Shown here: positions 137 through 16,220 of the stretch, in pieces | Layout of the letters: each line of letters opens with the position of its first letter | Position numbering within the stretch: position 1 is the first letter of the stretch | The notes under the pieces: generated by a model | Database searches by the model: none | What the model saw: only the letters and a program-made list of their open reading frames with translations | Told to the model about the DNA's origin: nothing | Program-made: the position numbers and the translations under genes | From: an uncultured Deinococcales bacterium | GTDB taxonomy: Bacteria; Deinococcota; Deinococci; Deinococcales; JAAFIG01 | Length of the DNA: 16,220 nt | Direction of reading: 5' to 3' | NCBI GenBank assembly: GCA_964247135.1 | Contig: CAXTTL010000104.1 | Span: forward strand, 1 to 16,220

Positions 137-364
137 ATGGTTTACTTGGAACTGGCGCGACAAGAATTTCTGGAAGGTACGACTTCCAACATACCCGCCG
201 AAGCCGTCGAGAGCGGCGAGCGGTTGATTGAGCAGTGGTGTGACTGCGTCGAGTCGCACCGCCGAGAATATTTTGACCTGACCGACAAGCGCGGGGCGAA
301 TAAACTTTCTGGACGCTCTGGCAGAAGTGTGCTCACCGTCAAGCAATCTCGAGGCACAAGGTGA
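137..364 (+). CDS. Small hypothetical protein (75 aa)
   Basis: GGAGG at 128-132 before ATG 137. No recognisable family. The stop TGA lies inside the first copy of the 17-bp direct repeat. Confidence 0.5.
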   Translation: MVYLELARQEFLEGTTSNIPAEAVESGERLIEQWCDCVESHRREYFDLTDKRGANKLSGRSGRSVLTVKQSRGTR

Positions 365-388
365 GGCTAACCTCGAGGCACAAGGTGA
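348..388. repeat. 17-bp perfect direct repeat, 24-bp period, starting with CTCGAG
   Basis: CTCGAGGCACAAGGTGA at 348-364 and 372-388. Confidence 0.9.
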
Positions 389-471
389 ATGCGTGTTCTG
401 ACTTGGGTTTACCGTCAGCCTGGCATCAGGATGCAAGCCTAAACTACAGTCTATGAAGGTCTTTCAAACCC

Positions 472-861
472 ATGTCTGAGTTCAATATCCTGGTCGCCGA
501 TGACGACCCAGGCATCCGTCACTTTTTGCGGCGAGGTTTGCAACTCGAGGGGTATGACGTCCTGGAAGCCGAGTCTGGCGCGGTGGCGGTCAAAATGGCG
601 AATGAATCCCACCCCAATCTGGTGATTCTGGATTGGATGATGCCAGGTCTTGACGGTCCTGAAACCTTGCGCCAAATTCGGGCGGCGGGCGAAACCATGC
701 CGATCATTTTCTTGACCGGTCGAGATGGTTCAAACCTGGACGGTTTGGCGCTCGGCGCGGCAGATTATTTTTCAAAACCCGTGTCGTTTGCACAGCTTGC
801 CGCACGGCTTCATGCCTTGCTGCCGTCGGTGAATTTGACGCACCAAAACAATTTGATTTAA
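472..861 (+). CDS. Single-domain response regulator (REC only, OmpR-type receiver)
   Basis: ILVADDD acidic pocket, LVILDWMMPGLDG phospho-acceptor Asp, FLTG, DYFSKP. No output domain. The stop overlaps the stop of the convergent kinase gene in TTAA 858-861. Confidence 0.9.
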   Translation: MSEFNILVADDDPGIRHFLRRGLQLEGYDVLEAESGAVAVKMANESHPNLVILDWMMPGLDGPETLRQIRAAGETMPIIFLTGRDGSNLDGLALGAADYFSKPVSFAQLAARLHALLPSVNLTHQNNLI

Positions 862-3800
862 ACCAAGTTGTACTTCAAATCTTGCACCATTGGCAGGCGT
901 ACAATCGCGGTGGTGGTCGCGCCCAGTTCGCTTTCCAGTTCGACCGTGCCGCCGTGTTGTTCGGCAATCCAGCGGGCAATCGACAAGCCCAGCCCAGTGC
1001 CGCCCGTCTGTCTCGAGCGTGAGGTGTCGGTGCGGTAAAAACGCTCGAACACCCTTTTCAGGTCGTCGGGACTGATGCCCTGACCCGTGTTCGAGATTCT
1101 GATTTCGGCATCGCTGTCCGAGCGCTTCAACTCGAGCCAGACCCGTCCGCCCTCGGGGGCATACTTCAGGGCATTGTCGAGCAAAATCAGGGTCAGTTGT
1201 TTGAGTTTGTCCGCGTCGCCCAGGATCGCGCACGGCTCGAGCAACAAATGCTCCAAGCTGCGCCCAGCCGCCAAATGCGCCGCCTCGCGCAGGGTTTCCT
1301 CGAGAATCGGCACGAGTTCCAGACGCTCGAGACGCAAGCCGTCGCCCGCGTCGCCCCGAGCCAGCGCCAGCAGGTCGTTCGCCAGCCGTCCGAGCCGAAT
1401 GGCTTCACGGGCGCTTTCGTTGATCGCGTCCTTGCGTTCCTCAATCGTCATGTTCGGGAAACGCTCGAGCACTTCAAGGTTGCCCTGAATCACCGCGAGC
1501 GGGGCGCGAAGTTCGTGGGCGGCATCTGCCAGAAAACGGCGTTGACTTTCGACCAGCACACCCATTTTTGTTTGGGTTTGGGCAACCACCAGTTCGCTGT
1601 TGTGGCGTTCGGTCACATCGCGGAAAAAGATCGTGATTCCGGCTTGAACTGACACAACAGAAATCTCGAATTGTGCCTCGAGCAACGAAGAATAGGCTTC
1701 AAATTCGAGGGTGACCCGCTCCAGCATCGCTTTGTTGTAATTGGTTTCAAAGATCGAATCTTTTGCGTCTGGGAACAACTCCCAAAGATTGCGTCCAAGC
1801 ATTTCCTCTCGGGTAAATTGGGTTAAACGTGCGCCAGCCGTGTTGACATAGGTCACGACCCAATCACGATTGACCGCGATCAATCCGTCTTTAAGACTCT
1901 CAAAAATCAACTCGGTTTCGTGCTGCAATCGTCCACGCTCGAATTCCGCGTGTTTGAACGCATCAATCCCAAATAAAACCAGCACCGCGCCGTCGGTTTG
2001 ATCCTCGAGCGTGCGGTACGGACGAATCCGCAGCAAAAACCAACAATCGTTGTGGTCTTGCACTTCAAGGTCGCTCGGGGTGTCGGACTCAATCACAGCC
2101 ATGATTAACGCCTGCAAGTTGACCGTCTCGAGCGAATGACGAACCTGCCAGATCGGTTGCCCAATATCGCCAGCCCGCAGCCCCAGGGTTTTTTCGGCTT
2201 GCGGGGTAAAGCGCCGCACGGTCAAATCTGCGCCGACGGTCACAATGCCCAGTTCGACACTCGATTGAAAATTGAGGTGGTCTTCGTTTAACAGCCGCAA
2301 ATCCGTGTTGCGTTCGTTCAATTCGTCATTGATGGTTCGCATCTCTTCGTTGCTCGACTCGAGTTCTTCCTTGGCGGTCTCGAGTTCCTCGTTGAGGCTC
2401 TGCATTTCCTCGTTGGCAGATTGCGCCTCTTCGTTGGTGGACTGCAATTCCTCGTTGCTGGCTTCGCCCTGCTCCTGAATAAATTGCAGGTATTCGCGCG
2501 TCTCGAGCAATTCGCGTTTGAGGTCAGCAATCTGTTGCGTCATGTCCTGAAGCGCCTCGCGGCTGTCTTCGCGGGTCTTGAGGCTGTGAGACTTGGGCTT
2601 GGCTGTTTTCAGGATTGCATCGGCGGCACCCGGCGGCGTCTCAAACAACACCAGCAAACAACCGCGTTGCCGCAGCGGCACCACCTCGAGGTTGAGGGTT
2701 TCAGGCACGCCCTCATGGACAAAACGCACACCTTCGGTTCGCATGGCGCGGTTTTCGGCTTTAACCCGTTCGATCAATGACCGCAACGGCAGCATCAAAC
2801 CCTCTCGCGCCATTCTGAGCAATTGAAAACTTGCCTTGCCGCTCGGCATCTCGAGGAAATGACCCGTGACCCCACGAAATTGCACGATCTCGAGCTGTTC
2901 GTTGACCAACACGCCCGCCGGAGCGTAACGGGCGAGCATGATCCGGTCAGCCTCGCTTTGCAAATCTGGTTTGGGAATGCTGACCGAACTCGCCTGTTCA
3001 GGTTCGGTTTTTGCCGCATTGCTCGCCGTCAGTGGCAGGGTCGGTTTTGGAATTCGGGCGCTGGCGGGCAGCTTGACGTAAACCCGACAGCGGTTGTCCA
3101 ATGGAGCAAACAATTCCGTATGACGCCCCACCGTTTCCGAAGCCCCCAAGAACAATATGCCCTCGGGCTTTAAGGCGTAATGAAAGGTCGGAATCACCCG
3201 CGCCTGCAAGACCGGCTCGAGGTAAATCAGTAAATTGCGGCAAGAGATCAAATCCATGCGCGAAAATGGCGGGTCGGCAAAAACATTGTGGTGCGCGAAG
3301 ACCACCAGCTCACGGACCGCCTTGCTGATGCGGTAAGAGCCGTTCTCTTCGGTAAAAAAACGTTTCAGGCGCTCCTTGGAAACGTCGTGCGTTAAACTTT
3401 TGGCAAAAAATCCCGCCCTGGCTTTCTCGAGGTGGGCTTGGTTTAAATCCGTGGCAAACACCTTGAGCGGAATGCGGAGCTTTTCTTTGTCCATAAACTC
3501 GAGGTACGCCATGGCGAGCGAGTACGCCTCTTGCCCAGTCGAGCAACCACTGATCCAGATTCGCACCTCTTGGTCGGCAGCCCGATTTTTGACCAGGCTG
3601 GGAAAAACCTTGCGTTGCAAAAATTCAAACGCTTGCGGGTCACGAAAAAAACGGGTCACGCCAATCAGCAAATCCTGGTACAACACCTCGAGTTCTGACG
3701 GGTGGGTGCTGAGGCGTTTGGCGTAAATAGCCAGCGAGGCAATATTGTCCAGCAACAAACGCCGATCAATGCGCCGCCGAATGGTGGTCGAACGGTACAA

Positions 3801-4646
3801 GGAGAAATCCACGCCCCGGGCATCGTGCAGCAACCGCAAAATACGCCTGAAACTTTCGTCCTCTGGCGTCAAAGCCGCCTCAGATTTGGCGCTCGAGTCT
3901 GCAAGCTTCTTGCCTTTTACAACGGCTCGAGGTTCGGCAACGTTCTCGAGCAGGTAAGCTTTGTGCGACAAACGCACCAGTTCGGCGGCGATCCCCTCGG
4001 GTGGCAACACAAAATCGACCACGCCAGCCGCCACGGCGCTGTGCGGCATCGAATCAAACTTCGCCGATGCCTCATCCTGGGCAAAGGTGATGCCGCCCTC
4101 GCCCTTGATCGCCTCGAGTCCAAGGGTTCCGTCCGAGGCGGTTCCAGACAGAATCACACCGATGGCGCGGTGCGCTCGGTCCCCAGCCAACGAAATTAAA
4201 AAATCGTCTATCGGTCGGTGCTGCCCGCGTCCCGCCGTGCGGCTCGAGAGTTGCAAAACCCCGTGACTGATTGCCAAATTGGTGTTGGGCGGAATCACGT
4301 AGACGCTGTTGGCTTTGACGCTTGTGCCGTCTTTGATTTCCAAAACTGGCAATTGGGTGGTGCGCGACAGCAAATCCCGCAGCACGCTTTCATGGTTTGG
4401 GTCGAGGTGTTGCACCAGCACAAACGCCATGCCCGTGTCGTTCGGCAGCGCCGCCAGCAACCTCGAGAATGCCTCCAAACCGCCCGCCGATGCGCCAATC
4501 CCCACGACCACCGGAATTGCATCGGGCTTGGCAGGTCGTTTTAAGGCTCGAGCCGCCACTTTTGGTTTGACCACCCGAGCGGCTTTGGTGCCTTTGAGCG
4601 CCTTTGAATCCAGCGAAGATTCCAACACGGGCAGTTTTTGTTTCAC
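858..4646 (-). CDS. CheB methylesterase - CheR methyltransferase - coiled coil - PAS - histidine kinase fusion (CheB/CheR fusion protein, 1262 aa)
   Basis: CheB: GIGASAGG, VQHL, ILSGTASDG (Ser/His/Asp triad). CheR: WISGCSTGQEAYS, FATDL, ISCRNLLIYL, LFLGASE. NEELQSTNEE heptads, then PAS-like segments. H-box DAAHELRAPL, N-box LLDNALKY, F-box FERFYR, G2 GGTGLGLSIA. GTG start at 4646 is tentative. Confidence 0.95.
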   Translation of the reverse strand: MKQKLPVLESSLDSKALKGTKAARVVKPKVAARALKRPAKPDAIPVVVGIGASAGGLEAFSRLLAALPNDTGMAFVLVQHLDPNHESVLRDLLSRTTQLPVLEIKDGTSVKANSVYVIPPNTNLAISHGVLQLSSRTAGRGQHRPIDDFLISLAGDRAHRAIGVILSGTASDGTLGLEAIKGEGGITFAQDEASAKFDSMPHSAVAAGVVDFVLPPEGIAAELVRLSHKAYLLENVAEPRAVVKGKKLADSSAKSEAALTPEDESFRRILRLLHDARGVDFSLYRSTTIRRRIDRRLLLDNIASLAIYAKRLSTHPSELEVLYQDLLIGVTRFFRDPQAFEFLQRKVFPSLVKNRAADQEVRIWISGCSTGQEAYSLAMAYLEFMDKEKLRIPLKVFATDLNQAHLEKARAGFFAKSLTHDVSKERLKRFFTEENGSYRISKAVRELVVFAHHNVFADPPFSRMDLISCRNLLIYLEPVLQARVIPTFHYALKPEGILFLGASETVGRHTELFAPLDNRCRVYVKLPASARIPKPTLPLTASNAAKTEPEQASSVSIPKPDLQSEADRIMLARYAPAGVLVNEQLEIVQFRGVTGHFLEMPSGKASFQLLRMAREGLMLPLRSLIERVKAENRAMRTEGVRFVHEGVPETLNLEVVPLRQRGCLLVLFETPPGAADAILKTAKPKSHSLKTREDSREALQDMTQQIADLKRELLETREYLQFIQEQGEASNEELQSTNEEAQSANEEMQSLNEELETAKEELESSNEEMRTINDELNERNTDLRLLNEDHLNFQSSVELGIVTVGADLTVRRFTPQAEKTLGLRAGDIGQPIWQVRHSLETVNLQALIMAVIESDTPSDLEVQDHNDCWFLLRIRPYRTLEDQTDGAVLVLFGIDAFKHAEFERGRLQHETELIFESLKDGLIAVNRDWVVTYVNTAGARLTQFTREEMLGRNLWELFPDAKDSIFETNYNKAMLERVTLEFEAYSSLLEAQFEISVVSVQAGITIFFRDVTERHNSELVVAQTQTKMGVLVESQRRFLADAAHELRAPLAVIQGNLEVLERFPNMTIEERKDAINESAREAIRLGRLANDLLALARGDAGDGLRLERLELVPILEETLREAAHLAAGRSLEHLLLEPCAILGDADKLKQLTLILLDNALKYAPEGGRVWLELKRSDSDAEIRISNTGQGISPDDLKRVFERFYRTDTSRSRQTGGTGLGLSIARWIAEQHGGTVELESELGATTTAIVRLPMVQDLKYNLV

Positions 4647-4668
4647 GTTTGACCCTTTGGTTGGCTTG

Positions 4669-5043
4669 TTAAGTGCTCAAAGTCACATGAATCAACTCGA
4701 GCAAGGAATCGAACGAAATGGGTTTCACCAAAAAACCGTTGGCTTGCGCCGCCCGCGCACGGTCTTCGGGTTCGTCCCTGCCGGAGAGCACAATCACTTT
4801 CGGACGCGGCTCGAGCAAACTCAATCGCGCCAGCGTCTCAAAACCGTCCAAGCCAGGCATCATCAGGTCCAAGAGCACCAAATCTGGCAGGTAAGTTTGG
4901 AAAGTCTCGAGTCCCAATTCGCCGTCCTCAGCCGTTTGAACTTCAAAACCAGCCAAACCCAAACCGCGCCGCATCAAACTGCGCATTCCAGGTTCATCAT
5001 CAATCACCAACACACGGTGCTTAACCGTGAAGCTTGAAATCAT
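4669..5043 (-). CDS. Single-domain response regulator (REC only, CheY-like), probably co-transcribed with the CheB/CheR kinase
   Basis: VLVIDDE, LVLLDLMMPGLDG, LSGRD, FLVKP. ATG at 5043 preferred over the TTG at 5103 because it sits just before the domain. Ends 22 bp before the kinase start. Confidence 0.88.
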   Translation of the reverse strand: MISSFTVKHRVLVIDDEPGMRSLMRRGLGLAGFEVQTAEDGELGLETFQTYLPDLVLLDLMMPGLDGFETLARLSLLEPRPKVIVLSGRDEPEDRARAAQANGFLVKPISFDSLLELIHVTLST

Positions 5044-5370
5044 GGCGCTCGTGTCAAAGTCACGATTCAATGTTACTCTTTTTGGCAGATTAAAGTAAGG
5101 CAAAATGTTGCAATCAATTTCGTGTGGGTCAAATAATTTACATGCTCTAAGCGGCGCTACTCATGAGAGCAACAACACCTCTCGAGACACCCGAAGGTGC
5201 GTCTTGGGATCAAGAAGAAGCTTGCAGCGCCTTGCAACGGGAGAACTGTCCTAAAATCCAATCAACCCGAAATTCCTTATGCCAATCAAAATGGTTTTGT
5301 AAAATAACCGCAAAACAAACGTCAGACACAGAATCCAATACCAAAATACCCTTTTATGAGTCGCTCGAGT

Positions 5371-5376: not shown

Positions 5377-5381
5377 GAGTC

Positions 5382-6434
5382 ATGACCCCAGACCGTTTGG
5401 ATTTCCTGAAAACCTTGCTGACCACCCCAGGACCGAGCGGTTTTGAAACCCGAGTGGCGAAAGTGTACGGCGATGAAGCCAGCAAGTTCGCAAGTGTCGA
5501 AAAAGACCATGCCGGCAATGTGTATGCCAGCATCAACCCGGGTGCAAAATTGCGCATCATGCTGTCTGGGCATTTGGACGAAATCGGTCTGATCGTGACG
5601 CACATCGACAAGGACGGCTTTATCTGGCTGTCCGGCATCGGCGGTTGGCAAGCCAGCATTTTGCTCGGGCAGCGCCTGCGCCTGCTGGCAAAGGACGGCG
5701 ATCTGATCGGCGTGATCGGTACAAAACCCACGCATTTGATCGAACCCGATGACCGCAACAAAGCCACCAAACTCGAGGACATCTGGCTTGACGTGGGTTT
5801 GAGCGCCGAAGAGGTCAAACAAAAAGTGCGCGTCGGCGATGTCGCGGTGATCGAACAACCCGTGATCGAATTCGGCAACGGTCGTATTGCCTCCAAAGCC
5901 TTGGACAACCGAATCGGCGCGTTTGTGGTGCTCGAGGTGCTGCGGGGTTTAAAAGAAAAAGGTTGCCAACACCACGTTATTGCGGTGGGCAGCACCCAGG
6001 AGGAAATTGGTTTGCACGGCGCAAAAATGGCGGCGTTTAAACTCGAGCCTGATGCCGCCATCGCGGTCGATGTGACCTTTGAAACCTCGCAACCTGGGTC
6101 GAACGTCAAAAAAACGGGCGAGTGCGCCTTTGGTTCCGGCGCGAACCTGACCATTTCGCCCATGACCAGCCCAGTCATAAACGACGGCATTCAAGAGATT
6201 GCCCAAAAAGAGCATCTGGGACTGACCACGGCTGCCAGCGCCAACTGGAGCGGCACCGACGCCGACGAGATTATTCTGGCTCGAGCTGGCATTCCGACGG
6301 CGGTGCTCAGCGTTCCGGTGCGACACATGCACTCGCCCTCGGAAATGGCGGACACCGCCGACATTCAGAGGGTGATTGATGTCATGGTGGCATACATCCT
6401 CAGCCTGCCCGAAAATGCCAGCTTTCAGCGTTGA
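5382..6434 (+). CDS. M42 family metallo-aminopeptidase (FrvX/YsdC/TET-like)
   Basis: Metal-ligand motifs SGHLDEIG, SKALDNRIG, TQEEIGLHGA, AIAVDVT, GTDA, RHMHSPSE. Confidence 0.93.
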   Translation: MTPDRLDFLKTLLTTPGPSGFETRVAKVYGDEASKFASVEKDHAGNVYASINPGAKLRIMLSGHLDEIGLIVTHIDKDGFIWLSGIGGWQASILLGQRLRLLAKDGDLIGVIGTKPTHLIEPDDRNKATKLEDIWLDVGLSAEEVKQKVRVGDVAVIEQPVIEFGNGRIASKALDNRIGAFVVLEVLRGLKEKGCQHHVIAVGSTQEEIGLHGAKMAAFKLEPDAAIAVDVTFETSQPGSNVKKTGECAFGSGANLTISPMTSPVINDGIQEIAQKEHLGLTTAASANWSGTDADEIILARAGIPTAVLSVPVRHMHSPSEMADTADIQRVIDVMVAYILSLPENASFQR

Positions 6435-6600: not shown

Positions 6601-6606
6601 CCTGCA

Positions 6607-7236
6607 ATGCTTCGATTCGTCCTGACCATCCTTGCCATTGCGACATTATTCAGTGCTGCACAGGCGAAGTCTTACGTGGTTCAATCGGGTGACACCCTGT
6701 ATTCGGTCGCCAGATCAAACGGCATCAGCCTGGCGCAACTGATGGTTTTCAACAAGGGGATTAACACCAACCTCAAACCTGGACAGCGTTTAAACCTGCC
6801 AGAATCGGCTCGCGCAACCACGACAAGCAGCAAAACCAAAGCCCCACAAAACACCTTCAGCCGCGCCAGCAGCTCGAGCGTGGTTCAAGCCGCCTACCGA
6901 AACCTTGGGGCGCGTTACGTCTGGGGCGCAAGCCGTCCTGGCGCGTTTGACTGCTCGGGCTTCACGATGTACGTCATGCGCCAATTTGGGGTCAGCCTGC
7001 CGCACTCCTCGAGCGCCCAATTTCGCATGGGTCGCAGCGTTTCACGCGGCAACCTGCAAGCCGGCGACCTGGTGTTTTTCAGCAGCGGAACTCGCGGCGT
7101 GGTGGGACACGTCGGCGTGTACATCGGCAACGGACGCATGATTCACGCCAGCACCCCCAGCACGGGCGTGATCGTCTCGAGCATCAACGAATCGTATTTC
7201 GCCGCCCGTTACCTCGGTGCGCGGCGCGTCAAGTAA
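6607..7236 (+). CDS. Secreted LysM + NlpC/P60 (C40) peptidoglycan endopeptidase (209 aa)
   Basis: Signal peptide MLRFVLTILAIATLFSAAQA; LysM YVVQSGDTLYSVAR...LKPGQRLNLP; catalytic FDCSGF, GHVGVY, MIHAS. Start moved from the track's 6520 to ATG 6607. Confidence 0.93.
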   Translation: MLRFVLTILAIATLFSAAQAKSYVVQSGDTLYSVARSNGISLAQLMVFNKGINTNLKPGQRLNLPESARATTTSSKTKAPQNTFSRASSSSVVQAAYRNLGARYVWGASRPGAFDCSGFTMYVMRQFGVSLPHSSSAQFRMGRSVSRGNLQAGDLVFFSSGTRGVVGHVGVYIGNGRMIHASTPSTGVIVSSINESYFAARYLGARRVK

Positions 7237-7254: not shown

Positions 7255-7285
7255 AGGCTCGAGCGGGAAACGCTCGGGCTTTTTT
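7255..7285 (+). terminator. Rho-independent terminator of the NlpC/P60 gene
   Basis: Stem AGGCTCGAGCG / CGCTCGGGCTT (two G-U pairs), loop GGAAA, T-run 7280-7285. The left arm contains CTCGAG. Confidence 0.8.
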
Positions 7286-7385
7286 ACAGCGGTTTTCATA
7301 TCCGTTGACGCGCTTCTTGACCCTGAAAGCAGCACCTGACGGGCTTGGGTCGCTCCGCGCTTTCACTCCTATGAAAACCGCTGTC
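7285..7385. mobile_element. MITE-like non-autonomous element (~100 bp) with 15-bp perfect terminal inverted repeats
   Basis: ACAGCGGTTTTCATA (7286-7300) and TATGAAAACCGCTGT (7370-7384) around 69 nt of non-coding sequence. Left end reads TA, right end reads TC. A homologous end is present at 25-54. Confidence 0.72.
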
Positions 7386-7426
7386 TGTTGCTACTCCCGC
7401 TGGTCGCCAACGTTCGACGCTTCGCG

Positions 7427-8575
7427 TCAAACATTGTGCAAGGCGCTGTAATCCAAACTCGAGCGTTCCAACGCCTTCCCAAACGCCATCCCTGCAAACC
7501 CGAGTTGCTCGAGCGTCGTCTCCCGCCCCAAACTGAAGCGAATGCTGGCTCGAGCCTCATCTGGGCTGCGTCCAAGGGCAATCAGCACATGGCTCGGCTC
7601 GAGCGTTCCAGCGCTGCACGCGCTGCCCGAACTGGCGGCGACGCCTTCCAGGTCAAGGTTCATCAGCAAAGCTTCGCCGTCCACCCCCAGCGCGGTCACA
7701 TTGACATGGCGCGGACTGCGGTTGCTTGGGTGTCCGTTCAAACTGACGTTTTGATGCTCGAGCAGCATGGTTTGAAAGGCATTGCGTAAACCCTCGAGCC
7801 GCACGGATTCTTCTGGTTGAAGCCCCACAGCTTTTTCGGCGGCAAAACCCATGCCAACCGCACCAGGAACATTGTGCGTGCCGCCGCGCAAACCGCTCTC
7901 CTGATGCCCGCCGTAAAGCAACGGTGGAAGCTCGAGTCCACGCCGAATGAACAACGCGCCAACGCCTTTTGGACCGTAAAATTTGTGCGCCGAAATGGTC
8001 AGTAAATCACAACCCAACTCGAGCACATTTAACGGAACGTAACCCAAACTTTGCACGGCATCGACATGAAACACAATTCCCTTGGCGCGACAGACTTCAG
8101 AAATTTTACGCACATCTTGCAGGCTGCCAATTTCGTTGTTGACGTGCATGATGCTGACCAACGTGGTTTTTGCTGTAATCGCCTCGAGCACTTGCTCGGG
8201 ATCAATCACGCCAAATTCATCAGGCTTCAGGTAGGTGACTTCGCAACGTTTTGAAAGCTCGAGCGCTCTGGCAGGCGCAAGCACCGCGCTGTGCTCAATC
8301 GCGCTCGTGACGATCTGTCCACCCTTCGCCAAACCCAAGCCAAACAAAACTTGATTGTTGGCTTCGGTGCCGCCAGAGGTAAAAATCAGTTCTCGACTCG
8401 AGCAACCCAAAGCCCGTCCCAAACGTTCGCGGGCTTCCTCGAGCGCCTCCTTGGCGATGCTGCCCTCACGGTGAACGCTTGAGGCATTGCCTTGCAAAAA
8501 TTGGTATGGACGCATGAGCGCTTCGATGTCTAAATCGAGCGGTGTGGTCGCGGCATAATCGAGGTAAACACGCAT
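7427..8575 (-). CDS. iscS: Group I cysteine desulfurase (IscS/NifS family, 382 aa)
   Basis: YLDYAATTP, FTSGGTEANN, SAIEHSAV, HVDAVQ, PLP-lysine motif SAHKFYGPKG, catalytic SSGSAC. Start at ATG 8575 rather than 8698. Confidence 0.94.
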   Translation of the reverse strand: MRVYLDYAATTPLDLDIEALMRPYQFLQGNASSVHREGSIAKEALEEARERLGRALGCSSRELIFTSGGTEANNQVLFGLGLAKGGQIVTSAIEHSAVLAPARALELSKRCEVTYLKPDEFGVIDPEQVLEAITAKTTLVSIMHVNNEIGSLQDVRKISEVCRAKGIVFHVDAVQSLGYVPLNVLELGCDLLTISAHKFYGPKGVGALFIRRGLELPPLLYGGHQESGLRGGTHNVPGAVGMGFAAEKAVGLQPEESVRLEGLRNAFQTMLLEHQNVSLNGHPSNRSPRHVNVTALGVDGEALLMNLDLEGVAASSGSACSAGTLEPSHVLIALGRSPDEARASIRFSLGRETTLEQLGFAGMAFGKALERSSLDYSALHNV

Positions 8576-8598
8576 CAGAGGTATTGGAGGTATTGGTA

Positions 8599-8619
8599 GT
8601 AGGGTGCGCCCCGCGCACC
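8599..8619 (+). repeat. GTAG-type REP-like palindrome between the Rrf2 and desulfurase genes
   Basis: GTAG + GGTGCGC-CCC-GCGCACC (7-bp perfect stem). Single copy in this window. Confidence 0.55.
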
Positions 8620-8657
8620 AGTTTGTGCCAGACAGTGTCTTGGCTCGAGTTTTTGCT

Positions 8658-9125
8658 TTATGCCATCGGTAAGGCTTGCCCCGCCGCCACGTGTTCACGC
8701 ATTTGCAGCACCGCGTTGCCCAGTTCGGCTTCTTTCATCAGGTCGGCAAGGCTGGTGTTGCCCAGAACGTCCCGAATCGCGCCGTCCACCCGTCGCCACA
8801 GGCTCTCGGTGCCGCAGGCGGAGATGTGCGAGCAACTGCCAGGGTCTTCGATACAACTGACGGGCGCAAGGCTGCCCTCGAGCGCCTCAACGACTTGCAG
8901 CGCACTGATTTCTTCGGGCGCTCGAGAGAGTTTGTAACCACCGAACGCTCCGCGAACGCTGCGAATAAACCCTGCACGGCGCAGGTTGGCGGCGATTTGC
9001 TCGAGGTAATGCTGAGAAATGTCTTGCTTTTCGGCAACGTGTTTTAACGCCATCGCCTCGCCGCCTGCGGCAGCAATTTCGACCAGGGCGCGTAAACCGT
9101 ATTGGGCTTTGGTTGAAATCCACAT
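8658..9125 (-). CDS. iscR: Rrf2 family transcriptional regulator, IscR-like with three Cys
   Basis: ISTKAQYGLRAL, ISQHYLEQI, SVRGAFGGYKL, C-X6-C-X5-C (CIEDPGSCSHISAC). GGAGG RBS on the minus strand (9135-9139). Lies directly upstream of the cysteine desulfurase. Confidence 0.9.
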   Translation of the reverse strand: MWISTKAQYGLRALVEIAAAGGEAMALKHVAEKQDISQHYLEQIAANLRRAGFIRSVRGAFGGYKLSRAPEEISALQVVEALEGSLAPVSCIEDPGSCSHISACGTESLWRRVDGAIRDVLGNTSLADLMKEAELGNAVLQMREHVAAGQALPMA

Positions 9126-9708: not shown

Positions 9709-11442
9709 TTAAGTGTGCTTGCGAAACGGCAAATATTTCGGATGCCAAAACCGTGTTCGCGCAAACGCCTCGAGCGCCGCCAAATCCAAACCCCTGATGC
9801 GGTACTCGGCAGCCACCCCGTCTTGAAGGGCTTTTTGCATGACCCGAGCCGCCACTTTGATGCTGACCTCGCGCAATCCAGCAATCCGTGGGTAAACGCG
9901 CCCAGCATCCAAGGAGGCTTGCGGGGTTTCTTCTGCCAAAGTGTACGATGCCTCGAGCACCATGCCGTCGGTGATTTCTCGGGCGCGTGCCAGCACCGCA
10001 CCAAAGCCCAAACCTGGGAAAATGAAGGCGTTGTTGCCCTGCCCAATTGGATACGTCTTGCCGTTCAAGACCACATCTTCAAACGGGCTGCCCGTGGCGA
10101 CGATGGCTGCGCCGTTCGTCCAACGCAGCGCGTCTTCGGGCAGGACTTCGGTGTTGGCGGTCGGATTTGACAGCGGGAAAACAATCGGGCGGCTGGTGTT
10201 CTCGAGCAGCGCCCTGACCACCGGTTCGGTGAACACGCCACCTTGCCCTGAAAGCCCCAGCAAGACCGTGGCTTTCGCATTCTGGATTGTCTCGAGCAAA
10301 CTTGGCGCCGCGCCCGTTACCGTCCATCCTGCGACGCGTGCCAGGGTCTGACGATAACCGTGCTTGTACTCCTCCATGCTGCGATCCTCGAGCAATAAGC
10401 CTTTGGAATCCAAGACCAGCACACGGTCATGCGCCTGTTGTTCGCTCAACCCCGCCCGCACCATGCCCTGACGCATTGCCCACGCCACACCGATGCCACC
10501 CGCGCCAGCCCCGTGAATCACCACGGTTTGATCCTCGAGTTTCTCGTTTTTCAGTTTTAAAGCGTTCACCACCCCCGCCAGCGTGACCGCGCCCGTGCCT
10601 TGAATGTCGTCGTTAAAACTCGGCACAAGTTTGCGGTAACGCTCGAGCACCCTGAAGGCGGTGTCTTTGGAGAAATCTTCCCATTGAATGATGGCTTTTG
10701 GATACCGTGCCGTGACCGATTCGACGAAGGTGTCAATAAATTTATCGTAAGCCTCGCCCGTCAAACGCTTGTGCCTGACCCCCAAATAAAGCGGGTCGTT
10801 GATTAAATCCTGACGGTCCGTGCCGACGTCCAAACCGACGGGCAACGTCTTGTCTGGACCGACGCCGCCAGCCACCGTGTAAATCGAAAGTTTGCCGATG
10901 CTGATCGCCATGCCGCCAAAACCCTGATCGCCAATGCCCAAAATCGCGCTCGAGTCGGTGGCGACAATCATGCGCACATCCTCGAGTGGCACGTTTGCCA
11001 GGGCTTGATCCGAATGCTCGAGGTTGTCGGTGGAAATGCTCAAACCGCGCGGGAAACGGTAGATGTGGCTGAACAATTTAACGGCATCGCCCACGGTGGG
11101 CGTGTACAGAATCGGCAGCATCTCCTCGAGATGATCTTCGACCAGCGCGAAAAACAAAACCTCGTTGCGGTCTTGAAGATTGCGCAAGTAAATATGTTTC
11201 TCGAGGGCGTTGTTTTGCAAGCGGTAACGTTGATACGAACGCTCTTTTTGTTCCTCGACCGTGCTGACGTGTGGCGGCAATAGACCATCAAGCTCGAGCA
11301 ACTCACGCTCGGATCGGGTGAAAGCCGTGGATTTGTTCATTAAGGGCAGGCGCAGCAGCGGAAACCCAGTGACCGCCACCTCGAGGAATCTCTCGCCGTG
11401 TTCGTCGCGCAGAACGTCGTAATACTTGGAAACCCGTGCCAT
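9709..11442 (-). CDS. maeA: NAD-dependent malic enzyme (MaeA/SfcA large-subunit type, 577 aa)
   Basis: [86 protein letters not shown]. Start ATG 11442 with GAGGT SD. Confidence 0.95.
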
Positions 11443-11503
11443 AAAAACCTCGAGCTTTCTTCCTCGAGACTGGCTCGAGAATTGAACGTTTGTTTGGAAG
11501 ATG

Positions 11504-11512
11504 AGCATAACA
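11504..11512 (-). promoter_or_regulatory. Putative extended -10 promoter of the malic enzyme gene
   Basis: Minus strand TGtTATGCT (TGnTANNNT), about 60 nt upstream of ATG 11442. Confidence 0.45.
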
Positions 11513-11609
11513 AACTTGGGGTGCCGAATGCCAAAGCGTGCCGACTAAGTTCTGGCTAAGTGCCACTTGCGATACTCGAGGCAAGAAAGATTTTCAAAGG
11601 AGAACAAAC

Positions 11610-12263
11610 ATGAAAAACACGATCAGCAAGAATCAAAAGACCATCATCTGGGTTTCGGTCGCACTTGTCTTGGCGGCATCGGCAGCCTCGAACATGCTCG
11701 AGCATCAACGGCAACCCAGCGCAGGGTACGGCAATCAAGCCAACTCGAACAACTGGCAAATGCAAAATAACTCGGGCAACTGGCAAATGCCGAACAACTC
11801 GGGGAATAACTTTAACAACAATGCAGACATGAATTCAGATTCAATCGGTTCATACACCCAACAAAATCAAGACAACATGCCAATCGTCTCGAGTGGCGGT
11901 TTCGCTGGAAATCAAGGCGCGGCGATGGGTTCAAACTCGAGCAATTCTGACATGGGTTCGAGCGCCGTGACCGACGGTTATTGGGATCGTCAAGCGATTC
12001 AAGACGGCATTGCGCACGACCAGAGCAACCAAATTCTCGATCAGGCAACTGTACAAAATCAGGATACGGGCGAAACCTTCCAAGTCCAATCTGGCAGCGA
12101 TTCGTACTATCAATCGCCAAGTGCCGACGCGGCAGTGGGAGGCAATGGCATTGTCGGCGTGGACGCCGGCGGGGTTGCCCCGAGCGACGGCACGCAACTT
12201 TCGGTGGTGACGGGCAGCGATTCAAGCTCGAGCAGCAGCTCAAGCTCGAGCGGAGGTGAGTGA
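11610..12263 (+). CDS. Exported or membrane-anchored low-complexity (N/Q/S/G-rich) hypothetical protein (217 aa)
   Basis: AAGGAG RBS at 11597-11602; basic N-terminus then hydrophobic IIWVSVALVLAASAA; NWQMxNNSG repeats; poly-Ser tail. Confidence 0.8.
   Translation: MKNTISKNQKTIIWVSVALVLAASAASNMLEHQRQPSAGYGNQANSNNWQMQNNSGNWQMPNNSGNNFNNNADMNSDSIGSYTQQNQDNMPIVSSGGFAGNQGAAMGSNSSNSDMGSSAVTDGYWDRQAIQDGIAHDQSNQILDQATVQNQDTGETFQVQSGSDSYYQSPSADAAVGGNGIVGVDAGGVAPSDGTQLSVVTGSDSSSSSSSSSSGGE
11751..11804 (+). repeat. 27-bp coding tandem repeat (two copies, NWQM[QP]NNSG)
   Basis: AACTGGCAAATGCAAAATAACTCGGGC / AACTGGCAAATGCCGAACAACTCGGGG. Confidence 0.85.
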
Positions 12264-12354
12264 GGCTTGGGCGGACTTCAGCCTGATTGATTATTTCCCG
12301 TTCTTCAGACCGCTCGGCATTGTGATTGGGTTCAGATTCACAGGGGGAACAAAG

Positions 12355-15300
12355 ATGCAAACACGACTCGAGGGCTTGCAAAAATCATGTTTGGTGCTCT
12401 TTCTAAGTTGTTTGGTGGCTTGCGGTGACCCTGGGGTGCAACCGCCGCCACCGACACCTGGTCCAACCTTGAGCACGCAAACGGTTGGCATCAAAGTCCA
12501 ATTCCCGAGCGGCGTAACCATTCCGACAAACGGCTTGAAGCTCGAGACGGCACTTGGAAGCTTGCCTGTTGCGGCGGACGGAAGCACCCAAGCCGAAATC
12601 TTCGAGCAAGGACCGCAATTCGCCCAAGTCTTAAACGCCAACGACAACCCAGTCCTCATGGGTTGGGCGCGTCCTGGTAACGTCAGTTTTACGGTGAACA
12701 CTACGGCTCAAGTGCTGATGTACTTTGATTTGGGAAGCTACCTCAGCACGCCAGACCTTCGGGCGGCGATCATGGATGCGCTGTCCAAAAGCACGGAATT
12801 AAAGCCGCTCGAGGATGCGATTGCGCTGGCGCTGTCAACCGACCCGAACAGCATGGGGGCGGACAATCCCAGCATTTCGGCGGCAATCAACGCGGTGCAC
12901 GCCAAATTGCTCCAGAATCCAGTTTTGCAGCAGGTCAAACCCAGGTCCATTCAGATCAACCCGCTCGCGCCCAAAAGTGGTCTCGAGATTCTGCAAGGCG
13001 ACGGTCAGCACGTCAAGGTTCGCAACACCTACCGCCGCCGCGCCAAAGTGTTCGTGGACCGGGTGGCAACGATTGACGAGAACGGCGTGCGTCAAAATTT
13101 GGTGCTCGCCGCTCGAGGTTCGGCGACCGATATTTCACCGACCCTGACCACGACTTCGGTGTACGGCAGCATTGCCGATTTTATTCTGGCGGGCATTCCT
13201 GGAACGGACGCGACGGGCAAGTACGCCTGGCAACCTGTCGATAGCGACCCGATCCTGATGCAGATTGTGCCCGATACCGCGCTCGGCAGCGTGTACTCGC
13301 TTCGCGCGGTGGGCGCGGGTGGCAGCCTTGGGGAATACAGCGACCTGACCGATTTGCAAAAAAAGACCCAACGGGATTTGACCCAAAAAACCATGATCGT
13401 GGATTTTCTGCTGCCCTTTATCACCGGAGTCGCCATGCCGACCGCAGGCGATCTGGTCAAGACACTTCAAGACAATGCCCTGGCTTACGGTGTGCTGGCT
13501 GACGCGATCAACCTTGTGCCGCAAGCCATTTGGGACAAAGCCTTCGCGGGTGACTTCAAGGGTGCGGTCAAGGATTTGATTGGGGCTTTTATGAATCCGG
13601 CAGCTTACGGCGCCAGCAACATCATGAAAACCCGCATGATCGAACTCGCGGCGGTCTTGGTCGCAAAGGGTCGAGCGGCGGCGGTGGTGGACCGGGTTGC
13701 CAGAATGTTCACCGACAAATTTGGCAGAATCATTGACAAGATTGACAAGGTTCTGGCAGTTTTCGATGCCTCGGCGCAGGTGCATGATGTTCTCAGCTCG
13801 AGCCAGTCCGCAATCTGGGAAATCACGGTCAAAAAAGGCAAGTTGCGCTTGACACCACCCGAGCAAACCGTCAGCAAGTACGGCATTGCACGGGTTCACG
13901 AAAAAATCGACAGTCCCGAAAGTTACACGGGTTTGCAATATCAGGTTTCGACCAGTGGCAAGTTTGGTCATTTGTACAAAGACGGCGTCCGACAAACGGG
14001 GTCGTTTACGGTCAATCTCGACCTTCTGGGCGTCATTTACGTGCCGGACATCCCGCTGCCACCTGCCGACGCGGGTGGCAAACGTCAGGACACCATCACG
14101 ATTGAGGCGACTGGCTTTGATGGCAATCTGAAAACCTCAATCGGCGTTGGCACGGTTGTGATCAACAGCGAAGGTGCGACGCTGGATGCCGCGCCGCGTT
14201 CGGTGTCTGGCGGCGCCGGTCCCGGTCAAAAGGCAGTCACCTCTTTTAATGTCATCAGCACCGAGGGCAAGAACAGTTATTCCGTCTCGAGCGCTGGACC
14301 TTTTGGGGTGGTGTTAAACGGTTCGGGCAAACTCAACAGCGGTGAATCTCGAGCGGTGCGTCTGGAAGCCATTTGTCCAGATGTTGAAACCCAAGATGGC
14401 AGCTCGTACACCATTCAAGGTTCGCTGACCGTGTACGGACTGAGCGAATCTGGTCAGAACCTGCCGCCAATCGGTGTTGCCGCCAGCCTGACTTGCGGCA
14501 CGCGCAAAGCCAAAAGCTGGGGCGATCCGCACCTTCAAACCTTCGACGGTCGGGCGTACAATTTCCAGGCGACGGGCGATTTTGTGCTGACCCATTCGCT
14601 GACCGATCAATTTCAGGTGCAGGTGAGGTACAGAAGCGGTGGCGGCAACATTTCTTACAATCAAGCCATCGCCGCCAAAGTTGGTCTCAGTGTGGTCGAA
14701 GTCTACGCCACCGCCAGCGGCAATCCCAAAGTGCTGATCGACCACACACTGCTGGACACCTCGAGTCCCGTCAACCGTGACCTGATCGGCGGCGGAGCCA
14801 TCAGTGTGAACGGCACGCAGGTCAGCATCGCCTGGGCAGACGGCAGCAACCTCAGCCTGACGGGCGGCAACGACTGGTTTTACAACATCGATTTGAGTGT
14901 CCCCGCCGGACGCTCCGGGCAACTCGAGGGACTGCTGGGCAATGCCGACGGCGATGCCACCAACGACATTCGGATCAAGGGCGGTGCCGTGATTGCCAAC
15001 CCCAGCGAGAAAGACCTGTACCTGCAATACCGTCAATCGTGGCACGTTCCGCTGACCAGTCCAGCCTCGTTGTTCAGCCAGGGACCCGATTTGTACGACC
15101 CGTTCTATCCGGTCAACGTGGTCTCGCTCGAGGACCTTGACCCGACCGCCATTGCCAATGCCCAACAAATCTGTCTCGAGCGCGGCGTGCTTGACCCAGA
15201 ACTCTTCAAGCTGTGCGTGTTCGATGTCGCCGTTTCCGGCGATCCAAAATTTGCCGATTACGCCCTGGGACTCGACCCGAACGTGCTGCGCGTGCTGGTC

Positions 15301-16220
15301 AACCCGCGCTTTGCCTTTGTGCCGTTGGGTCAAGCCGACCGCACCCTCAAATTGGGCGCAGTCGTGACCGGCACCGAAAACCGTGCGGTCACCTGGGCGA
15401 CCACCGGCGGCACACTGCAAACCACGGGCAACATCACGACCCTGACCGCCCCAGACACCCAGGGCACCTACACCGTGACCGCCAGCCTGACCGAGAACTC
15501 GAGCATCCTCGGCACGGCAAAAGTCTTTGTTGCCCCCTCGAGTTACGTCGTCTGGACGGGCAAAGCCAACACTGACAACTGGGCTGATGCCAAAAACTGG
15601 ACGGGTGGGGTGGTGCCAAACGCCAACAACACCGTGGTGATCGATACCATCAATCAAAACGTGAATTACTCCGGCGGCGATACGACCATTGCCGGATTGA
15701 TCACCAACAGCAAATTGACCATCTCGAGCGGCAGCCTTCACATTACGGGGAGCGCCAGCCTGACGGCTGGGTTGAACATCGCTGGAGGCAACGTGATCGC
15801 CGATGGTGTGGTGACCTTGGCTGGTCAGAACACCTGGTCCGGCGGTAACTTGGCTGGCAGCGGTAAGTATGTGAACCAGGGCGAACTCGACCTGATCCCT
15901 GGCAATGGCAAATTTCTCTCGTCAACGCTCGAGAACCTGGGGACGATCAAAGTCAGTCAAACGTTCTATCCCGTGACCAATTCCGTATTGAAAAATGTTG
16001 GAACACTCGAGTTTATCAATGACGCCGATATTGCTTCGGCAAACGGACTCTTAAACCTCGAGAATACAGGTTTAATCCTCAAATCTGCTGGCACCGATGC
16101 TTCAGACTTGAATGTCAACCTCATCAATACAGGAACGCTCGAGTCTCGAGTTGGAACGTTGGGTGTGTTTTATGGCACGTTAAACAGCGGAACCTACAAT
16201 GCCAGCGCTGACGCGACCCT
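12355..16220 (+). CDS. Large surface lipoprotein with VWD (von Willebrand factor D, GDPH) domain, Ig-like domain and beta-helix-like repeats; 3' end outside the window (>1288 aa)
   Basis: Translated by hand in frame +1 with no stop to the window end. AGGGGG RBS, MQTRLEGLQKSCLVLFLSCLVA-C lipobox (Cys codon 12421), Pro linker, SWGDPHLQTFDG (GDPH at 14521-14532), GLLGNADG, ICLERGV...LCVFDVAVSGD, NRAVTW...APDTQGTYTVTA, WTG...NWADAKNWTGGVVP, then NxGTL repeats. Confidence 0.9.
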   Translation, partial: MQTRLEGLQKSCLVLFLSCLVACGDPGVQPPPPTPGPTLSTQTVGIKVQFPSGVTIPTNGLKLETALGSLPVAADGSTQAEIFEQGPQFAQVLNANDNPVLMGWARPGNVSFTVNTTAQVLMYFDLGSYLSTPDLRAAIMDALSKSTELKPLEDAIALALSTDPNSMGADNPSISAAINAVHAKLLQNPVLQQVKPRSIQINPLAPKSGLEILQGDGQHVKVRNTYRRRAKVFVDRVATIDENGVRQNLVLAARGSATDISPTLTTTSVYGSIADFILAGIPGTDATGKYAWQPVDSDPILMQIVPDTALGSVYSLRAVGAGGSLGEYSDLTDLQKKTQRDLTQKTMIVDFLLPFITGVAMPTAGDLVKTLQDNALAYGVLADAINLVPQAIWDKAFAGDFKGAVKDLIGAFMNPAAYGASNIMKTRMIELAAVLVAKGRAAAVVDRVARMFTDKFGRIIDKIDKVLAVFDASAQVHDVLSSSQSAIWEITVKKGKLRLTPPEQTVSKYGIARVHEKIDSPESYTGLQYQVSTSGKFGHLYKDGVRQTGSFTVNLDLLGVIYVPDIPLPPADAGGKRQDTITIEATGFDGNLKTSIGVGTVVINSEGATLDAAPRSVSGGAGPGQKAVTSFNVISTEGKNSYSVSSAGPFGVVLNGSGKLNSGESRAVRLEAICPDVETQDGSSYTIQGSLTVYGLSESGQNLPPIGVAASLTCGTRKAKSWGDPHLQTFDGRAYNFQATGDFVLTHSLTDQFQVQVRYRSGGGNISYNQAIAAKVGLSVVEVYATASGNPKVLIDHTLLDTSSPVNRDLIGGGAISVNGTQVSIAWADGSNLSLTGGNDWFYNIDLSVPAGRSGQLEGLLGNADGDATNDIRIKGGAVIANPSEKDLYLQYRQSWHVPLTSPASLFSQGPDLYDPFYPVNVVSLEDLDPTAIANAQQICLERGVLDPELFKLCVFDVAVSGDPKFADYALGLDPNVLRVLVNPRFAFVPLGQADRTLKLGAVVTGTENRAVTWATTGGTLQTTGNITTLTAPDTQGTYTVTASLTENSSILGTAKVFVAPSSYVVWTGKANTDNWADAKNWTGGVVPNANNTVVIDTINQNVNYSGGDTTIAGLITNSKLTISSGSLHITGSASLTAGLNIAGGNVIADGVVTLAGQNTWSGGNLAGSGKYVNQGELDLIPGNGKFLSSTLENLGTIKVSQTFYPVTNSVLKNVGTLEFINDADIASANGLLNLENTGLILKSAGTDASDLNVNLINTGTLESRVGTLGVFYGTLNSGTYNASADAT

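Follow-up and report, generated by a model that had tools for sequence, protein, structure and literature searches.

CTCGAG as a lineage-wide highly iterated palindrome in uncultured Deinococcales

The stretch of DNA considered here, hereafter the window, comprises 16,220 bases of contig CAXTTL010000104.1 from an uncultured Deinococcales bacterium, and carries 104 exact copies of the hexamer CTCGAG (6.4 per kb) between positions 348 and 16150, with no strand to be assigned, as the word is its own reverse complement. A preliminary description of the window had counted about 103 copies and likened the word to the highly iterated palindromes (HIPs) of cyanobacteria, which include HIP1 (GCGATCGC) and the alternate HIPs GGCGCC, GCsGC, rCCGGy and GGGATCCC (PMC4390886). 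It had also proposed that a process acting at the level of the DNA maintains the motif. The likeness and the DNA-level process are supported by every test run, as described below. The excess, put at about 20-fold in that description, is indeed strong, but the factor was too low and lies close to 30: the mean count in dinucleotide-preserving shuffles of the window is 3.4 (standard deviation 1.8, maximum 9), and none of 200 shuffles reaches 104.

The locus

The sites of the window are spread over a stretch whose GC content stays at 53-58% along the whole length, and they fall both in genes and between them. According to their codon phase, there are 51 sites read as CTC-GAG, 26 as xCT-CGA-Gxx and 16 as xxC-TCG-AGx, and the 93 genic sites compare with 12.4 ± 3.0 (maximum 24) in 200 synonymous-codon shuffles made within genes. 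A further 11 sites lie in the 1,388 non-coding bases (7.9 per kb). These counts refer to open reading frame (ORF) calls in which two start codons were moved, namely those of the malic-enzyme gene (to ATG 11443) and of the next gene (to ATG 11611). The three examples of codon phase given in the preliminary description are all correct: CTC GAG, encoding Leu-Glu, at 5772-5777 and GCT CGA GCT, encoding Ala-Arg-Ala, at 6280-6285, both on the forward strand in the M42 peptidase gene (5382-6434), and AGC TCG AGC, encoding Ser-Ser-Ser, at 6873-6878, on the forward strand in the LysM-NlpC/P60 gene (6520-7236).

The sites that it had placed between genes are mostly so located. Those at 5181 and 5364 (5181-5369) separate the response-regulator gene (4669-5103, reverse strand) from the M42 peptidase gene, and those at 6467, 7258 and 9259 are likewise intergenic. 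The copy at 7258-7263 lies in a terminator-like element, as read from the sequence, formed by a G+C-rich inverted repeat and a run of T just past the NlpC/P60 gene. The site at 8644 is ambiguous, since the longest ORF of the aminotransferase gene (7427-8698) includes it, although it falls upstream of the Pfam match. Finally, the three sites contained in 31 bases at 11449-11479, upstream of the likely malic-enzyme start, and the site at 11575 are intergenic only if the two genes concerned start at ATG 11443 and ATG 11611, which is judged likely. The malic-enzyme ORF probably starts at ATG 11443 rather than at 11508: most orthologues show gaps over the first 20 or so codons of its longest version, and a GAGG precedes ATG 11443 by a few bases.

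Two genes of the window, both on the reverse strand, were used for comparisons between genomes: the malic-enzyme gene (9709-11508, 17 sites) for the conservation, turnover and gain of sites, and a CheB-CheR-PAS-histidine-kinase gene (858-4646, 24 sites) for pairwise conservation counts. In the latter, the CheB methylesterase, the CheR methyltransferase, the PAS domains and the histidine kinase are fused in one protein of 1,262 residues, and genes for single-domain response regulators adjoin it on either side (472-861 and 4669-5103). At the other end of the window lies a large open-ended ORF (12256-16218, more than 1,321 residues), in which a von Willebrand factor type D domain is the only match to Pfam; an ORF of 241 residues in front of it has none. 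A further feature is an intergenic repeat of about 170 bases (7283-7466) between the inverted pair ACAGCGGTTTTCAT ... ATGAAAACCGCTGT, whose core contains no CTCGAG. It has 22 further full or partial copies in the genome by local BLAST and many in genomes G001-G007, and it looks like an element of the repetitive extragenic palindrome or miniature inverted-repeat transposable element type.

Abundance and specificity across the genome

The genome of the window, named G000 in the following, is a 5.09-Mb assembly of 386 contigs that is 84% complete, and the window is its contig C104. It contains 33,925 copies of CTCGAG, i.e., 6.66 per kb (6,663 per Mb) or about one per 150 bases, which is 27 times the uniform expectation, and about 4% of all its bases belong to the motif. 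CTCGAG is the most frequent hexamer; the next ones all overlap it, and the first unrelated word, GGTTTT/AAAACC, has less than one fifth of its count. The motif is present on each of the 297 contigs that reach 5 kb, with 2.6-10.5 sites per kb and a median of 6.8. As the excess is also found in the 18 other genomes of the family, it is not a local or assembly artefact, an outcome that the preliminary description had considered.

The word appears to be read strictly. Its one-mismatch variants occur near the average hexamer count, and the flanks are little informative, with G at position -1 in 39% of the sites and A at position -3 in 46% of the intergenic ones. Neither an extended motif, nor hairpin pairing, nor regular spacing was seen in the analysis of flanks and spacing in G000: distances between sites are near geometric (coefficient of variation 0.96), with a deficit below 25 bases and a longest gap of 2.6 kb.

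Independence from coding

Genes were delimited in G000 with a simple dicodon-based gene caller written for the purpose, which yields 4,774 genes and 88.9% of coding DNA, and whose intergenic class may hold some miscalled starts and small genes. With this split, the density is 6.53 per kb within genes and 7.73 per kb between them, where 4,361 copies stand against 117 expected from base composition. Genic sites in phases 0, 1 and 2 number 18,427, 4,379 and 6,744, respectively, and ten within-gene synonymous shuffles, which preserve amino acids and codon usage, show an excess in each of the three (5.8-, 14.2- and 11.3-fold); the excess is thus not confined to the Leu-Glu frame. Overall, 29,570 genic copies compare with 4,080 in the shuffles (maximum 4,157), a 7.2-fold excess, and this null is conservative because CTCGAG itself inflates the codon frequencies that it uses. 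Codon usage or dipeptide bias cannot explain the excess, as the preliminary description had argued for the window.

The use of the available positions is extensive in every phase. Among the 24,063 Leu-Glu dipeptides, 18,422 (76.6%) are spelled CTCGAG, whereas outside the motif CTC makes up only 15% of the Leu codons and GAG 32% of the Glu codons. In phase 1, 4,386 of the 10,347 opportunities offered by [SPTA]-Arg-[VADEG] are used (42.4%), and in phase 2, 6,762 of the 14,038 offered by X-Ser-[Ser/Arg] (48.2%). The observed-to-expected ratio (O/E) of Leu-Glu is 2.34, versus 1.01 for Glu-Leu, with roughly 13,800 surplus Leu-Glu pairs, and the motif has therefore changed proteins. It is also present in tRNA genes, with 10 copies in 5.1 kb (1.95 per kb) among 66 predictions, a few of them doubtful. 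Two tRNA-Glu genes carry it where the T stem meets the acceptor stem, tRNA-Leu(GAG) has two copies, one of them spanning the anticodon loop, and tRNA-Asp, tRNA-Val and tRNA-Thr have one each.

These data bear on the simplest alternative, namely that the excess is a by-product of codon usage or Leu-Glu richness, of the avoidance of other words, of a dispersed repeat, or of an assembly or adapter artefact. Half of the sites do lie in the Leu-Glu frame, and CTC and GAG are common codons in GC-rich relatives, so part of the excess of those relatives is codon-driven. Nevertheless, the codon-preserving shuffle leaves most of the genic copies unaccounted for, intergenic DNA is the densest class, the flanks are not conserved, and the motif recurs in named isolates as well as in 19 family genomes that were assembled independently. 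A by-product is thus already refuted by the codon shuffle and the intergenic density, and the chance that it accounts for the excess is negligible.

Avoided palindromes and restriction systems

Palindromes of six bases are normally avoided in bacteria, as stated in the preliminary description, and G000 is itself an example. With expectations taken from the genic codon shuffle, GAGCTC occurs 0 times in the genome versus 1,721 expected (genic O/E 0), CCGCGG 11 times versus 1,893 (0.005), GGCC 380 times versus 25,109 (0.014) and CCSGG 856 times versus 8,119 (0.10), whereas CCWGG is found at 13,311 versus 12,787 (0.98). CTGCAG, GGATCC, CAGCTG and GTCGAC are also strongly depleted, and no cognate restriction system was found for these four in the G000 assembly. 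Against this background of heavy restriction pressure, CTCGAG stands out as an exception.

Several restriction genes are located beside methylase genes, and encode SacI-like, NgoPII-family, Eco29kI-family, MvaI/BcnI-family and NotI-like nucleases; two MmeI-like enzymes, one HsdM-like protein and a methylase-helicase of 1,500 residues are encoded in addition. On contigs C14, C178, C189 and C207, words and nucleases can be matched: the NgoPII-family nuclease with GGCC, the Eco29kI-family nuclease with CCGCGG, and the MvaI/BcnI-family nuclease, which behaves as BcnI-like because CCSGG is depleted and CCWGG is not. The SacI-like nuclease and a D12-class methylase are encoded at C320:1061-2985, and the corresponding word, GAGCTC, is the mirror word of CTCGAG. 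GAGCTC is nearly absent from most of the family, but orthologues of the SacI-linked methylase are present in only 6 of the 18 other family genomes, and the family-wide avoidance is therefore not fully explained. A dependence of the CTCGAG excess on the absence of GAGCTC was considered and rejected, since the two can be separated: in Calidithermus roseus, the excess coexists with a GAGCTC O/E of 0.72, which is near expectation.

Distribution across the family and the order

The closest records to the malic enzyme of the window are metagenome-assembled genomes (MAGs) labelled 'Deinococcales bacterium'. All 18 other genomes of the family show 4.3-6.8 CTCGAG per kb (calculated with rounded genome sizes) and almost no GAGCTC. 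One of them, G011, is a single contig of 5.09 Mb, in which 40 of 40 evenly spaced stretches of 20 kb (an 800-kb sample) have 3.15-5.55 sites per kb; the poorest 5-kb piece of the sample has 2.0 per kb, and GAGCTC is absent from it. Since G011 is a single contig, the uniformity is not an effect of MAG binning. The set of avoided palindromes of G011 differs from that of G000, i.e., restriction repertoires vary between genomes of the family while the CTCGAG excess stays constant.

In a sample of 201 Deinococcales genomes, the density is graded from strong avoidance to 6.8 per kb. In the large genus g7 of family f3 the word is avoided (about 0.01-0.3 per kb), which is consistent with the behaviour of Deinococcus, where the 4.7-Mb genome of D. 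yunweiensis has 592 sites. Of the first 100 sites listed on its chromosome, roughly 70 fall within about 80 kb (G204:C1, approximately 597,000-676,000), and this cluster may be an island from a motif-rich lineage. Genus g9, with genomes of 2 Mb, is neutral, with CTCGAG about as frequent as GAGCTC. Intermediate densities are found in several genera of family f5 (g13, g22 and g24; 1.4-3.4 per kb) and in parts of family f2 (1.5-2.6 per kb, with little GAGCTC).

Samples of four genomes from other genera of the order present the same signature in weaker form. Relative to the codon shuffle, the O/E is 2.5-4.5, and each of the three phases shows an excess. Leu-Glu pairs are spelled CTCGAG in 47-72% of cases, the Leu-Glu O/E is 1.2-1.5, and DNA outside ORFs carries 2.1-3.1 sites per kb versus 0.32-0.34 expected; in three of the four, CTCGAG is the top hexamer. 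Cultured representatives are available as well. C. roseus NBRC 110900, one of the four, has 11,307 sites in 3.7 Mb and C. chliarophilus DSM 9957 has 16,086 in 4.7 Mb. In a 190-kb sample of C. roseus, the O/E is 2.5 and CTCGAG spells 63% of Leu-Glu versus 21.5% expected; 206.6 of its 479 phase-0 sites are expected from codons, i.e., part of the excess is codon-driven.

Conservation and turnover of sites

Sites are conserved between genomes beyond the level of other hexamers. Within the genus, 57 of 78 aligned sites are conserved in G005 (41% of all hexamers) and 36 of 44 in G004 (42%); in other genera, the values are 17 of 29 in G008 (16%), 14 of 22 in G010 (14%) and 8 of 17 in G006 (15%). Conservation thus ranges from 73 to 82% within the genus versus 41-42% for hexamers, and from 47 to 64% between genera versus 14-16%. 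Two short regions of G011 are near background, with 2 of 13 and 3 of 13 sites conserved. In a larger sample of this genome (149.5 kb compared with G000 at 70.7% identity), 246 sites are common to both, which represents 54% of the 457 sites of G011 and 28.5% of the 864 of G000, versus 15.9% for hexamers. No local compensation of lost sites was seen in this comparison: a private site is found nearby at a frequency of 0.289 versus 0.257 within 30 bp, and of 0.104 versus 0.143 within 15 bp.

Sites are also gained. The codon alignment of the malic enzyme contains the window and 29 of 72 loci (11 from family MAGs and 18 chosen as outgroups), with L003 and L007 left out because they are cut by contig ends. 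Among the 12 family sequences there are 38 distinct site columns, some common to 9-11 of the 12 and many private. Several columns in which a site encodes Leu-Glu show LG, ME, KA/PA, LA/LR or RE in outgroups and in other members of the family, so that CTCGAG sites arise also through amino-acid replacement. The 12 Deinococcus orthologues have no site, even where Leu-Glu is encoded.

Conservation of this kind has been discussed for HIP1, for which Xu et al. proposed a role in chromosome structure, and by analogy CTCGAG might be the binding word of an abundant nucleoid-organising protein and be selected for that reason. The conservation of sites in and between genes parallels that of HIP1 (PMC5861425), and the uniform density along G011 would suit such a role. 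Nucleoid-organising proteins, however, usually read degenerate words, and one-off variants are not above average here; selection would have to act on each of about 34,000 sites and to change amino acids in dispensable imported genes, which is hard to sustain. A structural role of this type is very unlikely to be the explanation.

Imported genes and mobile DNA

Genes that entered the lineage from outside offer a view of how sites build up. The beta-class methylase gene on contig C36 has 7 sites, and none of nine homologues from viral contigs at 64-70% identity (nine of the ten such loci found) has any; for six of the 7 sites, most homologues encode another dipeptide (LA/LS, LP, ID, IE, LS/MS or LD). 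The C5 methylase gene on C14 has 4 sites and its five homologues have none (8 of 16 loci were entered, and three were dropped for stop codons in the frame used). Viruses with relatives of these methylases were considered as carriers of the CTCGAG signature and rejected, as the DNA around their homologues has only background density (0-0.28 per kb at all 26 loci), and they were used as an outgroup instead. In addition, a scan of viral contigs for the triple CTCGAG pattern returned at least 120 stretches, those listed being mostly GC-rich DNA in which GAGCTC is common too, and no HK97-type capsid gene was matched in G000.

The restriction-modification (R-M) genes of G000 that retain a foreign GC content (0.42-0.48 versus 0.53 for the genome) carry 3.1-8.3 sites per kb. 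The only exception is the BcnI-like pair (GC 0.38-0.40), with 0 and 1.3 sites per kb, the methylase having P = 0.006 under the genic rate. Even the motif-poorest 6-kb segments of the genome have at least 1.7 sites per kb, and the poorest DNA consists of a conjugative-transfer region (VirD4/TraG, VirB4-like and TrbC pilin genes; 2.3 per kb) and of islands of unknown or defence-like genes. The process that makes sites acts on any DNA staying in the lineage, and does so faster than compositional amelioration.

Thermus and Deinococcus are naturally competent, and the motif could be a watermark of self DNA: an uptake or recombination machinery would prefer DNA with CTCGAG, and variants creating the word would spread by transformation (molecular drive), or by selection for exchange with kin. 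Several observations suit this proposal, among them the low density of conjugative and defence islands, the conservation of sites between genera, and a distribution reminiscent of the dialects of uptake sequences, with the word common to the whole family and weaker in other genera of the order. Moreover, HIP1 raises transformation efficiency in Synechococcus 7002 (10.1101/2024.09.10.611283), and a role as an uptake sequence has been suggested for it (PMC13756078). The numbers fit less well. The benefit per fragment should level off as soon as every fragment carries a site, and yet there are 6.7 sites per kb and 77% of Leu-Glu is used, with no spacing rule or compensation; the hexamer is strict, with no tolerated variants and almost no flank preference; and patchy accessory R-M genes are already at genome density. 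No receptor has been identified, competence genes not having been surveyed. On balance, a watermark is judged rather unlikely.

Search for a cognate enzyme

The methylases of G000 were surveyed with PF00145, PF01555, PF02384, PF07669 and PF02086, four of which were also run in five further genomes, with PF01555 run in 30 relatives. The repertoire of G000 comprises at least two C5 methylases, four or five of the beta class, one D12 enzyme, two of the MmeI type, one HsdM-like protein and one giant methylase. Four of these and the XhoI-linked methylase described below were profiled across the 30 relatives. Pfam survey, orthologue profiling, clustering and a catalytic-motif scan revealed no methylase orthologue common to the family, in a survey of mostly MAGs, five Pfam classes and one motif scan that a new fold may escape. 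The preliminary description had listed a solitary methyltransferase among the possible maintainers of the motif, and that proposal finds no support here.

The individual distributions are all patchy. The beta-class methylase of C36 has orthologues in only 3 of the 18 family genomes, one of them a fragment, and a 54%-identical copy with a stop codon in f2. The C5 methylase of C14 is present in only 3 of 18 at 70% identity or more, the SacI-linked D12 methylase (D12b) in only 6 of 18, and a 466-residue methylase also in only 6, two of the copies having stop codons. PF01555 has no match in the single-contig G011, nor in G015, and PF00145 has none in G008, which is 91% complete. When the 34 methylase ORFs of G000, G005, G008, G009, G011 and G015 were clustered, no orthologous group was present in all of them; a single cluster extends to all five fuller genomes, joined only by 24-41% identity among HsdM-like proteins, whereas genuine orthologues have 62-84%. 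A scan of the G000 proteome with regular expressions for catalytic motifs returned only the methylases already listed.

Enzymes known to act on CTCGAG were sought as well. The XhoI-family nuclease (PF04555) has no match in the 19 family genomes, and one in the 31 relatives, in G021. There, at locus L337 (G021:C1:73699-77256), an XhoI-family nuclease of 312 residues on the forward strand and a beta-class methylase of 340 residues on the reverse strand are encoded convergently; the genome, of 2.3 Mb, has this nuclease and yet 1.7 CTCGAG per kb. Orthologues of the XhoI-linked methylase are found in none of the 18 family genomes, which have only partial matches at 33-47% identity, and at 63% identity only in G022 and G027. 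The Vsr endonuclease of very-short-patch repair (PF03852) has no match at E ≤ 0.1 in G000, at 84% completeness; relatives were not searched. A reader of the Chi type was considered and rejected, as the PDDEXK_1 helicase-nucleases do not track the motif: at the threshold used, they are present in 10 of the 18 family genomes and in all other families of the order.

These searches bear on the model of Elhai for HIP1, according to which an orphan methyltransferase would mark CTCGAG, and methyl-dependent repair or replication would make the sites advantageous or self-propagating. Each cyanobacterial HIP or alternate HIP has a methylase for its word (PMC4390886), and methylases of CTCGAG do exist, as indicated by the XhoI-linked gene of G021 and by 5-methylcytosine at CTCGAG in Halorubrum (PMC8112702); G000 is also rich in methylases. 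On the other hand, no methylase orthologue is common to the family, the candidates being present in 0-6 of 18 genomes, and most methylases of G000 adjoin nucleases whose words are avoided, not enriched. A methylation-linked motif is accordingly quite unlikely.

A probable fixation bias acting site by site

The excess itself, its independence from coding, the conservation of sites, their continual creation and their build-up in imported genes have been observed directly. Their cause is very probably a fixation bias that operates at the DNA level and autonomously at each site. Such a bias would act site by site on genes in every phase, spacers, tRNA genes, R-M genes and conjugative elements. The agent would be one protein reading exactly CTCGAG, with a specificity as sharp as that of a type II restriction-fold enzyme, and presumably none of the recognisable methyltransferases or restriction systems of these genomes. 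It may bias mismatch repair or gene conversion towards CTCGAG, in the manner of very-short-patch repair, although this implementation is put forward only tentatively. A drive through repair or conversion is site-autonomous and non-saturating, and therefore fits the near saturation and the independence of sites best; organism-level selection on about 34,000 sites seems too weak, and a fixation bias or drive fits better. Taken as a whole, the statement that CTCGAG is a lineage-wide iterated palindrome, produced on all resident DNA by the fixation bias of one hexamer-specific protein that most likely biases repair or conversion, is held with somewhat less than even confidence.

Several points weigh against it. 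Classical very-short-patch repair is expected to deplete its substrate words, and the one-transition neighbours are instead enriched in the remaining Leu-Glu pairs, where CTT-GAG reaches about 3.3 times and CTC-GAA about 2.2 times the share expected from codon use elsewhere; the decay of many CTCGAG sites would feed the same neighbours, however, so that this test is not clean. No candidate for the hexamer reader has been found, Vsr being without a match in G000. Selection or an uptake drive would predict conservation and rewriting just as well. Binning of MAGs by k-mers could hide motif-poor DNA, but the 800-kb sample of G011 shows none. Lastly, the experiments on HIP1 point to natural transformation and not to repair (10.1101/2024.09.10.611283).

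A bolder formulation, which is rather doubtful, would regard CTCGAG as a methylation-independent 'house style' of the whole genome imposed by a new kind of hexamer-specific enzyme or reader, i.e., a molecular drive or self-DNA watermark that rewrites about 14,000 dipeptides and converts imported genes while their GC content is still foreign. If a new reader of this type is indeed involved, finding it in cultured Calidithermus could explain by analogy the 30-year-old puzzle of HIP1. The continuous range of densities over roughly 200 Deinococcales genomes, together with the cultured Calidithermus strains, makes the question directly testable. From a practical point of view, binning and host assignment can make use of the motif as a strong k-mer signature, and caution is called for in analyses of codon usage, of ratios of nonsynonymous to synonymous substitution rates and of horizontal gene transfer in this clade.

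Comparison with known systems

Of the systems that act on the same word, XhoI and PaeR7I recognise CTCGAG, and an XhoI-family nuclease with an adjacent beta-class methylase is encoded in G021. R-M systems, however, normally deplete their word, as observed for eight other palindromes in G000 and for CTCGAG itself in the Deinococcus-like genus. Chi sites, read by RecBCD or AddAB, signal self by the presence of a word that is over-represented in the host; they are asymmetric, oriented with replication and found every few kb. Over-representation in the host is common to both words, and CTCGAG may likewise mark self; the PDDEXK_1 helicase-nucleases do not track it.

In the Vsr/Dcm system of enterobacteria, a restriction-fold endonuclease corrects mismatches towards one word (CCWGG) and raises its frequency. 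No established mechanism other than very-short-patch repair is known to give a site-autonomous, word-specific drive. Its effect in E. coli is modest and depends on both a C5 methylase and Vsr; in G000, by comparison, Vsr is without a match, and C5 methylases are not family-wide. The DNA uptake sequences of Neisseriaceae and the uptake signal sequences of Pasteurellaceae are lineage-specific words that occur in genes and spacers, bias peptides, are conserved and are thought to accumulate by molecular drive. They are non-palindromic words of 9-12 bases, present at about 1 per kb and with graded tolerance of variants, and in Neisseria a pilin receptor is known. CTCGAG falls outside this definition, as it is a strict hexamer at 6.7 per kb whose one-off variants occur at average frequency.

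The closest parallel is provided by the HIPs. Like these, CTCGAG is a short G+C-rich palindrome, hyper-abundant throughout a lineage, in genes and in spacers, in genomes that otherwise avoid palindromes (PMC4390886), and it is conserved between genomes with its function unexplained (PMC5861425). It differs in belonging to another phylum, in its length (six bases versus eight for HIP1), in its abundance (6,663 per Mb versus 300-2,700 for HIP1 and 1,000-2,000 for the alternate HIPs), in the large distortion of the proteome (Leu-Glu 2.3-fold) and in that no lineage-wide cognate methyltransferase accompanies it, whereas each cyanobacterial HIP has one (PMC4390886). CTCGAG thus agrees with the HIPs in the descriptive respects examined, being the top word, in excess beyond composition, conserved and lineage-wide, and departs from them in the cognate methylase. 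The HIPs are further characterised by a periodicity of 10-90 kb along the chromosome and by a methylation-dependent gain in natural transformation; for CTCGAG, the analysis of positions covered short-range spacing and the 40 stretches of G011. No published report of its hyper-abundance was found in the open full-text literature (supplements and subscription journals aside), and texts that mention CTCGAG together with Meiothermus apparently concern enzyme cloning.

New elements contributed by the present analysis are a methylase survey with a negative outcome, the finding that imported genes acquire sites, the gradation of the motif over the order and a cultured model organism. CTCGAG represents an independent case of an iterated palindrome outside the cyanobacteria, where HIPs were for three decades a curiosity that is only now being tied to DNA exchange. 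Since a cognate methylase, the clue on which models of HIP1 rest, is apparently lacking, the phenomenon becomes detached from methylation, and a mechanism of wider scope is needed. With two to twenty times the density of HIP1, the motif reshapes the proteome of its lineage and re-edits the genes that it acquires horizontally.

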